A stretch of 22,258 nucleotides of DNA from Promethearchaeota archaeon (lineage in GTDB: Archaea > Asgardarchaeota > Odinarchaeia > Odinarchaeales > JBHLKK01). The position numbers and the translations under genes are program-made. Under the pieces are notes generated by a model, which saw only the letters and a program-made list of their open reading frames with translations, did no database searches and had not been told where the DNA came from. This document shows positions 6,679-9,985 of the stretch, piece by piece (the first letter of the stretch is position 1; each line of letters starts with the position of its first letter). Where the stretch lies: contig JBHLPL010000021.1 of the NCBI GenBank assembly GCA_048939465.1, positions 1-22,258 on the forward strand, in the 5' to 3' direction.

Positions 6679-7158
6679 TCATTTCTTCGTGATGGGAATA
6701 TACAGGTACACAGCATCCCTTTCTGGGTCTCGGAAACCTTCGGGGTAGTATTCGTGAATTGCACCTGCTTGCTCATAACCTTCCCTTGGTGAGAATTTTT
6801 TGTAAAAATAAGTCATTCCGTCTCTAAAAGTCGGCAATGTACAAGCGATCGCTACGAATTTCTGTTCTGGAATATTCCAAGTTTTCCAACCCTTGGATGG
6901 TTTTGTGCCCGGATCGACTTCCCATCCTGCCAAGTATTTTCCTTTTCCTTTTTCTTTCCAAGGAGCCAAGTATTTATCGATCGAGCTCATGAGACCCCAA
7001 GCTCCCTTACCGGCCTTAACGAGGTCTTTAACCTCATCACGTCGGTCAAAGGCCTGTTCCCATAATTGTGGAATCCATTTAGGACCTTTGCTGACATCAC
7101 CGCTCCCTTCGATCCCTAGCACAGTAAAGGCGGTTTTGGCTATGATCTTTGCATCCAT
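6679..7158 (-). CDS. GyrI-like small-molecule (effector)-binding domain protein
   Basis: FTVLGIE...IPQLWEQ...YLAGWEV...IPEQKFVAI...EYYP...YLYIPI pattern. GGAGG RBS. Confidence 0.8.
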   Translation of the reverse strand: MDAKIIAKTAFTVLGIEGSGDVSKGPKWIPQLWEQAFDRRDEVKDLVKAGKGAWGLMSSIDKYLAPWKEKGKGKYLAGWEVDPGTKPSKGWKTWNIPEQKFVAIACTLPTFRDGMTYFYKKFSPREGYEQAGAIHEYYPEGFRDPERDAVYLYIPITKK

Positions 7159-7385
7159 TTTGAAGCCTCCAATGATAGTTCTCTCCAGTCCGGAACAGAC
7201 CTAAAAGCTTAACCTATGCGGTCATAGTCCCGAATCAAGTGAAAGTGTTAATGACGCTCATTCTTATTGTATTTCAGTAGTTTGAATAAGAACAACCTGA
7301 GAGTCTTTCTACGTTACCTAATGGGCTCAGGCCATATGAATCAGCCCTTAACGGGTCGAAACTCAATAAACATCATTTGATCACT

Positions 7386-7949
7386 CTAAAAAATCCTTGT
7401 CAAGATGAGTATTCCAAATACTATGAATAATGCTGCTGCAACCCTTTTGATTAGAACTAATGGCAGCTTTTGACCTATTTTTTCCCCAATCAAAACTGCG
7501 ATTCCGTTTACAATAAGAAAACCCAGAATTGCTCCAATAAATACTTCAACTGGGGCAATGAGACTAATCGTTAAGCTTATTACTGCGAGCTGCGTTTTGT
7601 CGCCAAATTCGGAGACGAATACAAACCAGAAGACCGTAGCAAATGAGGCAGCAGCCTCAACTGAGTCCTGCTCCTCCTTCTTGGCTGTCAGTAGGTAATA
7701 GAACCCGAGGATTATGAACACAGAGCCAGAAATGTATGCCAGGATATTGGATGGTATTACTTCCGTCAAAAAGAAACCGAGGCCGATACCGATTAATGTG
7801 ACTGTTGACAACGCTAGGATGACTGCCGTCAAAACCGTGTAACGCTTTCTATATCGGGCGGAAAACACGATAGTTGACAGCATGGTCTTATCGCCAAATT
7901 CCGTAATAACTATCAGGATGAAAGCTGACGTAATTGCTTCAACGATCAT
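7386..7949 (-). CDS. TMEM165/GDT1 (UPF0016) family Mn2+/Ca2+ transporter
   Basis: Two E-x-G-D-K-T motifs (TEFGDKT, SEFGDKT) in hydrophobic repeats. Confidence 0.92.
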   Translation of the reverse strand: MIVEAITSAFILIVITEFGDKTMLSTIVFSARYRKRYTVLTAVILALSTVTLIGIGLGFFLTEVIPSNILAYISGSVFIILGFYYLLTAKKEEQDSVEAAASFATVFWFVFVSEFGDKTQLAVISLTISLIAPVEVFIGAILGFLIVNGIAVLIGEKIGQKLPLVLIKRVAAALFIVFGILILTRIF

Positions 7950-8273
7950 TTTTTGCCGGTTTCTCTCAGGTCATCCTCTGTTATATAGATCTGGACAGCC
8001 TTTGAGTAAAACCTCCCAAGTTTCCTTTTAACCTTCAAGAAACCAAGAATAGGACAGATTTGATAATGCAAAATAAAGATTATTTTTGAGAAATTTCCTT
8101 ACTCTGAACTTCTTTCCTAATAAAATCATGAAAAATTACTTAGATTTTGAAAACTATTGATCTAGTTGCGATCATTGCCAAAATAATCTTTCTGCAATCG
8201 ATTTCTTTGACACAATAATGATCATTTGAATAGAGCCTACTGGGTAAATTTAGAGACAAAAAGGTGACAGTCA

Positions 8274-8342
8274 ATGTTCAGGATAGAAGAAGATTGGAAC
8301 GAAGAAGAAGATTGGAACGAAGAAGAGGAAGAAGACTGGTGA
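8274..8342 (+). CDS. Putative acidic micropeptide MFRIEEDWNEEEDWNEEEEEDW (22 aa)
   Basis: GGTGA RBS (8263-8267) 6 nt before ATG, in-frame stop just upstream, and synonymous variation (GAT/GAC, GAA/GAG) that preserves the D-W and E pattern. Confidence 0.5.
   Translation: MFRIEEDWNEEEDWNEEEEEDW
8286..8321 (+). repeat. Exact 18-bp tandem duplication (GAAGAAGATTGGAACGAA x2)
   Basis: Read directly. Encodes EEDWNE twice. Confidence 0.95.
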
Positions 8343-8384
8343 TTTCAACAAGACCATTTGCAGAAAATTAGGTGATGAAAAAGA

Positions 8385-8432
8385 ATGTCCAAGAAGAAGA
8401 AAGAAGGAAAGAAGAAAGGAAAGAAGAAGTAA
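8385..8432 (+). CDS. Putative basic micropeptide MSKKKKEGKKKGKKK (15 aa)
   Basis: GGTGAT RBS (8371-8376) 8 nt before ATG, mixed AAG/AAA Lys codons, and a T8 tract downstream. Confidence 0.5.
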   Translation: MSKKKKEGKKKGKKK

Positions 8433-8463
8433 TAACAACAAATCAATTATGGAATAATCATTC

Positions 8464-8471
8464 TTTTTTTT
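8464..8471 (+). terminator. Oligo-T terminator candidate closing the micro-ORF pair
   Basis: T8 tract about 30 nt after the second stop. Confidence 0.5.
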
Positions 8472-8781
8472 CAAATCCTGCTATTTTTGGATTTGATTTC
8501 CCTAGGCGGTCACCTAAAGAAAGATTACTGATTCTAGCACTACTTCCTCAAGAAAATTCTAACTGCGGACGAGGATTTTAGATTTTTAAAATCAGTTTTC
8601 AATCATCGGAGTCTTACGAATATTAATCTTCATTTGACAAAGATAAGGGCATAATCAACTTTCCGTCTTCTATTGAAACCCATCAAATTCACTGTCAAAG
8701 CTAATTTGCCGGAGATTTAATATCACTTTATCCCAAGAAAATTCAGAGCACACTTGAATCGAATCCGCATCACCCATTCAT

Positions 8782-9612
8782 CTATTCATACGAAAGAATT
8801 GTTCTCGCCTTCTTAAGTATTAACTCGAGAGTCTTCTCGGAGATTCCTGTTTCTTTTCTAATTTCCTCTGGTCTCTTTCTTATAAGGTCTCTTAGCAGTA
8901 TTATTCCAGCTGATGTGATTTTCTTTCTATCGGAAGCCTTTAGACCTTTAAGATAGGTTATGGGGTACAATTTCTTTTCTTCAATCATAGTTTGTAGGTC
9001 ATGATGACGAGGGGAACTCCACCCTATGTGATGAATACCTCTGCATTCTACATATTCTATGGCTTGTTTTGAGAGCTTGGTGTTGCAGACGATCATTGCC
9101 TTATCTATTCTGAAATCGTTCAATCCCAATTCAAACCCCTCAGTAACATCTTCGAGAACAGCTCTTAGTATGCGACTTTCATCTAAGCCCGTTTCTGTGT
9201 GATACCTATAGTGATGTTTTACTTCCACGATGTACGTTTCACCATTCTTGCTTGCGATAGCGTCGACCTCGTGCTCCGTGCATCTCCCCCGTATAATCTG
9301 GTTTGGAATGACTTTGTAACCATGTTCCCTTAGCAGGATTTGGATGAAATGTTCAAAATTAGGGGCTGGCCTCATCAAGCTCAAGGCTTCTCGCAGATCA
9401 ATCTGGTGCTTAACGGCAGGTTTATGTTTGCCTAACTGTCTGAAAATCATTTTAAGAATCTTCTCTGTCTCAATGCCCTCATAGATGCCCGCTTCAACCG
9501 TCTGAGCGACTTTTTCGGAGACTTCTCTGTTAGCCCCCAGCCTCAAACAGGTTCCTATGACTCTTTCTCTATCAAACAACTGTTTGGTACCGTCCGCCTT
9601 TGTTACGAACAT
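8782..9612 (-). CDS. ATP-cone + PD-(D/E)xK (Mrr-like) endonuclease domain protein
   Basis: N-terminal VTKADGTKQLFDRERV (ATP cone) and EHEVD...IVEVKHH nuclease motif, with a helical C-terminus. GGGGTGA RBS favours ATG 9612 over GTG 9624. Confidence 0.85.
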   Translation of the reverse strand: MFVTKADGTKQLFDRERVIGTCLRLGANREVSEKVAQTVEAGIYEGIETEKILKMIFRQLGKHKPAVKHQIDLREALSLMRPAPNFEHFIQILLREHGYKVIPNQIIRGRCTEHEVDAIASKNGETYIVEVKHHYRYHTETGLDESRILRAVLEDVTEGFELGLNDFRIDKAMIVCNTKLSKQAIEYVECRGIHHIGWSSPRHHDLQTMIEEKKLYPITYLKGLKASDRKKITSAGIILLRDLIRKRPEEIRKETGISEKTLELILKKARTILSYE

Positions 9613-9985
9613 AATCGCAGTCACCCCTGATAGGTATCAAGAGTTCATTCAATAAAAGGGCGACAGTCTGTCTTTCCAGAGTCATCTCAGTCTCATGCCG
9701 GCATTCTTCAATCAGTTTGGCTGTCAGCATTCCTTAAACGATATAAGGATATAGAAAAGGTAATGATTGTATGAAACTCCTCAATATGAGCTGCAAACCT
9801 ACAGTGTTCCTTAGCCATAGTTCAACTAAAGTCGTATCCAATGCAAGAGACTTCTCAGAATCTTAGCGTTGTCTGAAGCTCGACCATACTCTCGCCATCT
9901 CTTTACTATCCACCATTTACCATCTGCCATTACAGCCTGCCATCTAGTCTACAGATTTATATATAACACTGTTATTCCTTTAATC

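Follow-up and report, generated by a model that had tools for sequence, protein, structure and literature searches.

The window, i.e., the whole stretch of 22,258 nucleotides of Promethearchaeota archaeon contig JBHLPL010000021.1 that was analysed, contains an 830-bp gap between the gene of a GDT1-family membrane protein (7386–7949, minus strand) and an ATP-cone/Mrr-type gene (8782–9624, minus strand), for which no gene is listed in public gene calls. In this gap, two very short open reading frames, ORF1 and ORF2, are arranged in tandem together with the following sequence elements:

8014–8262, plus strand: conserved non-coding upstream element, aligning in four paralogues and three orthologues
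8052–8059, plus strand: conserved upstream block GGACAGAT
8165–8182, plus strand: conserved upstream block GTTGCGATCATTGCCAAA
8213–8232, plus strand: upstream block CAATAATGATCATTTGAATA, about −50 from the ATG, candidate BRE/TATA
8263–8267, plus strand: SD-like GGTGA of ORF1, 6 nt before the ATG
8274–8342, plus strand: ORF1, ATG to TGA, product MFRIEEDWNEEEDWNEEEEEDW
8343–8384, plus strand: intercistronic spacer of 42 nt, carrying the second SD
8371–8375, plus strand: SD-like GGTGA of ORF2, 9 nt before the ATG and inside the spacer
8385–8432, plus strand: ORF2, ATG to TAA, product MSKKKKEGKKKGKKK
8464–8503, plus strand: oligo-T tracts (T8 at 8464–8471, T5 at 8484–8488) at the end of the conserved block

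The ORF1 product is composed of 22 amino acids, including 13 acidic residues and three Trp, which form three (E/D)n-D-W units with Trp as the last residue. The ORF2 product comprises 15 amino acids, ten of which are Lys, and its reading frame is closed by a double stop, with a second TAA at 8433–8435. Coordinates and translations of both ORFs agree with those of an earlier sequence-only reading, which had also assigned to each of them a GGTGA ribosome-binding site at normal spacing. Genome-wide, an SD-like 4-mer is found in the 20 nt before the start in 46% of the long ORFs versus 18% of random sites, and the modal SD spacing is 6–8 nt, a range into which the spacing of ORF1 falls; thus, the SDs of the window (6 and 9 nt) are normal for this organism. 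Archaeal transcription is terminated at oligo-T tracts, and those downstream of ORF2, at which no hairpin terminator was found, are a probable archaeal intrinsic terminator.

In the window, the net charge of the acidic peptide is about −12 versus about +9 for the Lys-rich peptide, and in every unit described below the acidic peptide carries the charge excess, the charges being unmatched. Both ORFs of the window copy are GAA/AAG-rich with short tandem repeats, and the charge complementarity of this copy is partly that of one purine repeat read in two frames. Sequencing runs matching the locus were DNA metagenomes only, from mangrove and other sediments. The convergent neighbour at 8782–9624 (minus strand) combines an ATP-cone, a Mrr-type restriction-endonuclease core and an AF1548-like C-terminal domain, which is an unusual nucleotide-sensing nuclease architecture.

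The whole 1.96-Mb assembly was scanned for small ORFs of 8–80 amino acids with at least 55% D/E and at least one Trp. Only four loci with such acidic-Trp (acid-Trp) ORFs are present in the genome, and a Lys-rich ORF lies 42–52 nt downstream in 4/4 of them, the spacer measuring 42–52 nt in all units. Besides the window copy, these are:

C8:2385–2556, plus strand: paralogous unit of acid-Trp ORF and Lys-rich ORF
C146:6120–6342, minus strand: paralogous unit of acid-Trp ORF and Lys-rich ORF
C3:7075–7236, minus strand: paralogous unit of acid-Trp ORF and Lys-rich ORF

All four Lys-rich partners have their own G-rich SD and a T5–T8 run no more than 60 nt past the ORF2 stop, a combination which, among the 28 Lys-rich small ORFs of the genome, is confined to these four. 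The chance of a 4/4 pairing is about 1e-12 by our rough estimate (28 Lys-rich ORFs in 3.9 Mb of two-strand sequence); pairing by chance is excluded. The Lys-rich partners on C3 and C146 use varied codons, including those for Ala, Pro, Gln, Thr and Gly, and, therefore, lysine richness appears to be selected at the protein level. Larger proteins of the genome yielded four single, unremarkable matches to the acid-Trp motif. In the C3 copy (7075–7236, minus strand), a single TGA stands between ORF1 and ORF2, which share one frame, so that read-through would give a 53-residue acid-linker-basic protein. ORF1 and ORF2 of the window are also in frame but three TGA codons intervene, and in two copies the ORFs are out of frame; since a single TGA is found only in C3, a general mechanism of read-through fusion was rejected.

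The unit is also present in two genomes of the same genus, with 75–77% identity over positions 8000–8503 of the window, and one of these congeners also holds an orthologue of the C146 unit. Comparison of these seven units (four paralogues and three orthologues) revealed the hallmarks of two coding sequences under constraint. Start, SD and frame of both ORFs are kept in every orthologue; in the two congeners, the ATG, frame and Trp codons of ORF1 are retained and its indels measure 6 and 12 nt. The indels in ORF2 of the orthologues are of 3 nt only. All indels within the ORFs are, hence, multiples of three, and the gaps in the flanks have other lengths. In the three orthologue pairs, 7/14, 8/13 and 11/17 of the ORF1 differences and 3/3, 6/10 and 5/11 of the ORF2 differences fall on the third codon position, which is the largest class of change for ORF1 and, in two of the three pairs, for ORF2. 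The changed codons of ORF2 relative to the orthologues of the window copy are synonymous in 3/3 and 5/7 cases, respectively, and most amino-acid replacements in ORF1 are exchanges among D, E and N. Identity amounts to 0.79–0.94 in the ORFs versus 0.61–0.80 in the flanks and is higher in the ORFs in most comparisons. The three (E/D)n-D-W units are conserved in all seven units, a G-rich block occupies the ORF1 SD position in 7/7, the spacer stretch AGGTGATGA.AAAGAATG is nearly invariant across the three orthologues, and TTTTTTCAAATCCT is kept in the orthologues together with the second T-run.

The conservation of ribosome-binding site, start and frame in relatives, on which the sequence-only reading had made its case depend, is thus present throughout the congeners. 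The GAA/AAG repeats of the window copy could also be those of non-coding, purine-rich, low-complexity DNA with accidental ORFs; however, with seven units keeping frames, starts and SDs, with in-frame indels and with paralogues of diverse codon usage, such an explanation is extremely unlikely.

The upstream element of about 250 nt is common to all four units of the genome, and an nhmmer profile built from it finds exactly these four genomic places. No conserved ORF exists in the element, which has stops in every frame, and RNAalifold predicted 0 pairs for it; a hidden ORF or a structured RNA was accordingly rejected. Because of these stops in all frames and of the missing consensus RNA structure, the element is probably a promoter together with regulator sites. 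The upstream stops also dispose of the possibility that the pair is the decayed tail of a longer gene. Over the transcribed part of the unit, RNAalifold again returned 0 conserved pairs, and a search of Rfam gave no match at the gathering score, with chance-level matches only at E 0.5–5, on which grounds a structured ncRNA or riboswitch was rejected. A C/D-box reading was rejected as well.

Judged from its sequence and that of its relatives, it is very probable that the unit is a genuinely coding micro-operon and that it belongs to a wider family. It has the appearance of a bicistronic, self-contained and independently transcribed unit with oligo-T termination, in line with the proposal of the sequence-only reading, based on two RBS-led ORFs and a T8 run, that one tiny transcription unit had been missed here.

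The genes around the paired units are heterogeneous and comprise transporters, a RadB-like protein, a glycosylase, a kinase, one SAVED protein and unknowns; the gene adjoining the C3 copy has no significant Pfam match. The GDT1 gene lies divergently on the left also in congener G001, with a different right flank, and a CitMHS transporter is encoded downstream of the C146 unit and its orthologue. In G001, about 1.3 kb of additional DNA separates GDT1 from the unit. Downstream of the unit, both congeners have a co-directional gene for an eight-TM membrane protein of about 380 amino acids (L010:2393–3511, plus strand; L011:3–1142, minus strand), for which no Pfam family was found and tblastn of the assembly of the window genome finds no homologue.

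The transporters suggest a possible role of the acidic peptide in the buffering of cations (Ca2+, Mg2+ or Mn2+), with the Lys-rich ORF being incidental, given that GDT1 is divergent from the unit in the window and in G001 and that CitMHS follows the C146 unit and its orthologue. However, the other units are without transporters, and the conserved Trp residues and the Lys-rich partner would be left unexplained, which makes this role extremely unlikely. A link to the cytoskeleton had been considered in the sequence-only reading, as acidic-Trp tails occur in eukaryotic Arp2/3 activators. No cytoskeletal gene was found beside any copy, and the only conserved neighbour of the look-alikes described below is ABCE1 of Thermoprotei; an Arp2/3-type modulator is thus as improbable as accidental ORFs, and the proposed actin link is not upheld.

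Opposite charges, predicted co-transcription and the presence of several copies would also fit a toxin/antidote-like pair, in which a harmful Lys-rich peptide, active on membranes or nucleic acids, is neutralised by the acidic peptide, whose charge excess would suit an antidote made in surplus. Yet the pair is chromosomal, with the left flank kept in one congener; no mobile-element context of the units was seen, and the only link to defence islands is the SAVED neighbour of one unit, which belongs to another genus. Moreover, the acidic ORF precedes its partner and is solitary in many lineages, and the Lys-rich peptides are not amphipathic and are devoid of hydrophobic residues. We, therefore, regard such a pair as very unlikely. 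Two further candidates were rejected. For a RiPP precursor, an adjacent modifying enzyme (radical SAM, ATP-grasp, YcaO or similar), protease or exporter would be expected, and a modifying enzyme is missing among the neighbours (GDT1, ATP-cone/Mrr protein, CitMHS, RadB-like protein, unknowns). The LysW/ArgW carriers possess a zinc-ribbon body, a C-terminal EDWGE tail and an LysX/ArgX ATP-grasp neighbour; the ORF1 peptide has no Cys, ends in Trp and is without an ATP-grasp neighbour.

Beyond the genus, a double acid-Trp DNA motif is present in 73/201 genomes of the same phylum, with 0 matches of the reversed control, and nearly all motif matches in 30 loci that were fetched proved to be micro-ORFs, of 36–76 amino acids. 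In family f22, the acid-Trp micro-ORFs begin with a short basic stretch, and in 7/9 micro-ORF loci a Lys-rich micro-ORF of 20–24 amino acids is located at a distance of 47–122 nt, either upstream or downstream. Two tandem copies on L283 (minus strand, about 1500–2400) and L282 show the Lys-rich micro-ORF first and the acid-Trp micro-ORF at 47–56 nt, the reverse of the order in the window. The acid-Trp micro-ORFs of family f9 are solitary and start with Met-x-Lys-Lys-Lys, i.e., with the basic head fused to them. A comparable fusion is the 43-residue protein of a Bathyarchaeia MAG (L119:3291–3419, minus strand), in which a Lys-rich head is joined to an acid-Trp body ending in Trp. The occurrence of both gene orders and of basic-acidic fusions implies that the basic and acidic modules are functionally linked. 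A scan of species representatives yielded more small acid-Trp ORFs in Thermoproteota, Bathyarchaeia, Thorarchaeota, Promethearchaeia and Micrarchaeota MAGs; in many lineages, the acid-Trp ORF is solitary.

Pattern searches for such pairs in relatives, as recommended in the sequence-only reading, were thus productive for the f22 pairs in either order. The RBS-linked pattern TGGTGA-gap-ATG-x-KKK, in contrast, was unspecific, with about twice the control rate and without pairs at the loci checked. The exact N-terminus (MF[KR]x followed by acidic residues) is confined to the genus of the window, as five other matches to MF[KR]x-EE[ED] in the phylum turned out to be ordinary longer genes or unrelated ORFs. 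The sister family f2, including a closed 1.4-Mb genome, gave no match by the two acid-Trp patterns, which does not imply absence.

Owing to their low complexity, statistically significant homology is not computable for the peptides. A profile of ORF1 produced 0 matches in 1.8 billion representative proteins and 0 among PDB chains, the ESM Atlas contained unnamed clusters only (scores below 0.9), none of about 15 billion predicted proteins is identical in sequence to any of ten family members, and the family has no Pfam match. Judging by sequence, the unit appears to belong to an undescribed, broader archaeal family of acid-Trp micro-proteins. The acid-Trp micro-ORF is, hence, among the more widespread unannotated features of the phylum and invisible to standard annotation. 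To our knowledge, and in the literature searched, such an acidic/Lys-rich pair, i.e., an operon dedicated to two disordered micro-peptides of opposite charge, has not been described in archaea.

Outside the phylum, ABCE1 is located directly downstream of an acid-Trp micro-ORF in an Acidianus genome and in a distant hot-spring Thermoproteota MAG. Among 28 Thermoprotei ABCE1 loci, 6/28 have an acid-Trp micro-ORF 43–77 nt upstream and a seventh has one at 241 nt; the six ABCE1-adjacent micro-ORFs encode Trp-terminated peptides of 27–33 amino acids. The three E-D-W units of the Sulfolobales and the window peptides align in register. In the two Sulfolobales genomes examined in detail, the gap between ORF and ABCE1 contains a TATA-like box of ABCE1's own. 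In a complete 2.7-Mb Sulfolobales genome (L222, minus strand), the place upstream of ABCE1 that is taken by the acid-Trp micro-ORF in its relatives is occupied by a tRNA gene. RNA-library contigs of a cultured Sulfolobales organism, obtained from four studies, extend across both the acid-Trp ORF and the start of ABCE1, which is a weak hint at transcription of this ORF, the contigs giving no ends, strand or level. In the window's phylum, an acid-Trp ORF within 600 nt upstream of ABCE1 was found in 0/24 loci, and the window genome's own ABCE1 has none upstream either; the link to translation is, therefore, borrowed from another phylum.

Our preferred reading, to which we assign a probability of roughly 0.4–0.45, is that the products of the unit are two disordered peptides of opposite charge, which act in trans as a pair. 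The acidic one would be a multivalent docking peptide, each (D/E)n-W unit of which would put its Trp into a hydrophobic pocket ringed by basic residues, as is the case for the N-terminal acidic motif (NTA) of eIF3j on the eIF3b-RRM. The Lys-rich peptide would provide a polycation for RNA, the ribosome or the acidic peptide itself, and, upon co-translation from one mRNA, the acidic partner might buffer, chaperone, deliver or compete with this polycation. That the two peptides work by charge complementarity is plausible, and the idea is strengthened by the f22 pairs in either order and by the naturally fused proteins in which a basic head precedes an acid-Trp body. The translation apparatus is the likeliest cellular context because the Thermoprotei look-alikes sit directly upstream of ABCE1; an involvement in translation at ABCE1 specifically is a tentative and, taken by itself, rather unlikely proposal.

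The main rival of a trans-acting peptide pair is that of cis-acting regulatory leader ORFs, whose acid-rich and poly-Lys nascent chains would make ribosomes stall or drop off. Either termination at the T-run or the expression of the following gene would thereby be adjusted, perhaps in response to Mg2+ or to the ribosome-recycling capacity. Acidic and poly-Lys nascent chains are known to perturb ribosomes. A co-directional gene is located 200–660 nt downstream in 6/7 units, the Sulfolobales ABCE1 loci display the same layout of an acid-Trp ORF, a spacer of about 45 nt and the next cistron, and the cation-linked transporters GDT1 and, in two units, CitMHS are neighbours. However, the window unit faces a convergent gene instead, a conserved T-run follows ORF2, the downstream genes are mutually unrelated, conserved alternative RNA hairpins are missing, and ABCE1 has its own TATA-like box in the two Sulfolobales genomes examined. 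Furthermore, the Trp positions are kept, with conservative D/E exchanges, and the gene order is reversed in another family; for these reasons, a peptide product fits better, and regulation in cis is considered unlikely. The narrower case of a leader-peptide attenuator was rejected, as there are no conserved hairpins, the downstream genes differ and the next gene of the window is convergent.

A comparable leader peptide is MgtL of enterobacteria, which is acid-rich and causes intrinsic ribosome destabilisation. MgtL-type leaders resemble the unit in being very short, D/E-rich ORFs at the 5' end of a transcription unit; in contrast, they are bacterial, act in cis on a defined gene via RNA switches and have no Lys-rich partner. 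In the window unit, no conserved RNA structure was found.

With respect to trans-acting systems, a close likeness is to eIF3j/Hcr1, in which, both in yeast and human, a Lys-rich stretch follows the NTA. The NTA is an acidic motif whose conserved Trp docks in a Lys-flanked hydrophobic pocket of the eIF3b-RRM, with its acidic flanks pairing with lysines (PMC2824034). [quoted passage not shown] The resemblance of the acid-Trp peptides to eIF3j consists in a disordered acidic run with conserved Trp; in addition, the Thermoprotei look-alikes adjoin the ABCE1 gene, which is not so in the window's phylum. The difference is that, here, two separate peptides of 22 and 15 amino acids are encoded, with no helical-bundle domain and no detectable homology. 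Compared to the aP1 tail, which is a flexible acidic linker with terminal hydrophobic anchors, the acid-Trp peptides likewise end in an aromatic anchor; the stalk tail, however, is ribosome-tethered and uses Leu/Leu/Phe anchors in a short helix, while the micro-peptide would be free and uses Trp.

From these similarities it might be argued that the pair is the archaeal equivalent, split into two peptides, of the N-terminal half of eIF3j/Hcr1, serving as an accessory of ABCE1 or the small subunit at the recycling-to-initiation step. In favour of this stand the ABCE1-neighbouring acid-Trp ORFs of Thermoprotei, the acidic, Trp-centred nature of the NTA and the shared contact site on ABCE1; against it, ABCE1 adjacency is absent in the phylum and in the window genome, homology is not demonstrable, the helical-bundle domain is missing, and eIF3b, to which the eIF3j motif is known to bind, is not known from archaea. 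A counterpart of this kind is, hence, regarded as unlikely, and, the peptides being of low complexity, their likeness to the Sulfolobales ORFs or eIF3j might have arisen by convergence. The evolutionary extension, which would make the micro-proteins separate archaeal precursors or analogues of the eIF3j/Hcr1 N-terminal half, is distinctly unlikely. According to it, the two-peptide module would dock on ABCE1 and/or the small subunit and couple recycling to re-initiation; Asgard and TACK archaea would have kept the genes apart, and in eukaryotes they would have become part of a larger factor by fusion. If the preferred trans-acting pair did act on ABCE1 or the ribosome, it would constitute a new component of the translation cycle of archaea and have implications for how a eukaryotic factor arose.

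The charge-pair aspect of the preferred reading has its parallel in prothymosin-α and linker histone H1, which form a disordered polyelectrolyte complex; these are eukaryotic proteins of 110–220 amino acids that are encoded apart. In both systems, one partner is extremely acidic and the other is Lys-rich, and both are disordered, with binding by charge being presumed for the archaeal peptides. In contrast, prothymosin-α has no Trp anchors, and the archaeal pair consists of micro-peptides predicted to be on one mRNA. As a polyelectrolyte pair, it would be a minimal natural system for such complexes. DSS1/Sem1, a eukaryotic acidic adaptor of 70–90 amino acids with Trp/Phe anchors and with the proteasome lid, BRCA2 and TREX-2 as partners, is also small and disordered, with Trp-punctuated acidic runs by which it sticks to grooves of basic and hydrophobic character in several partners. 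It differs in having no Lys-rich co-cistron, and its likeness to the acid-Trp peptide is one by description, without shown sequence homology.

The acid-Trp motif is also encountered as part of larger proteins. In genus g36 of the same phylum, the C-terminal tail of PCNA homologues (Pfam PCNA_N, E 1e-13 to 1e-15) contains the same acid-Trp units:

L284:646–1542, plus strand: PCNA homologue with acid-Trp tail, Pfam PCNA_N
L288:682–1536, plus strand: PCNA homologue with acid-Trp tail, Pfam PCNA_N
L281:649–1548, plus strand: PCNA homologue with acid-Trp tail, Pfam PCNA_N

The motif is, therefore, used also as an appended tail of a sliding clamp. Chloroflexota MAGs encode proteins of 72–78 amino acids in which a Cys-rich head resembling a zinc ribbon is combined with an acid-Trp tail (L146:616–849, plus strand; L154, minus strand; L108:348–563, plus strand) and, thus, the tail motif is found in bacteria, too.
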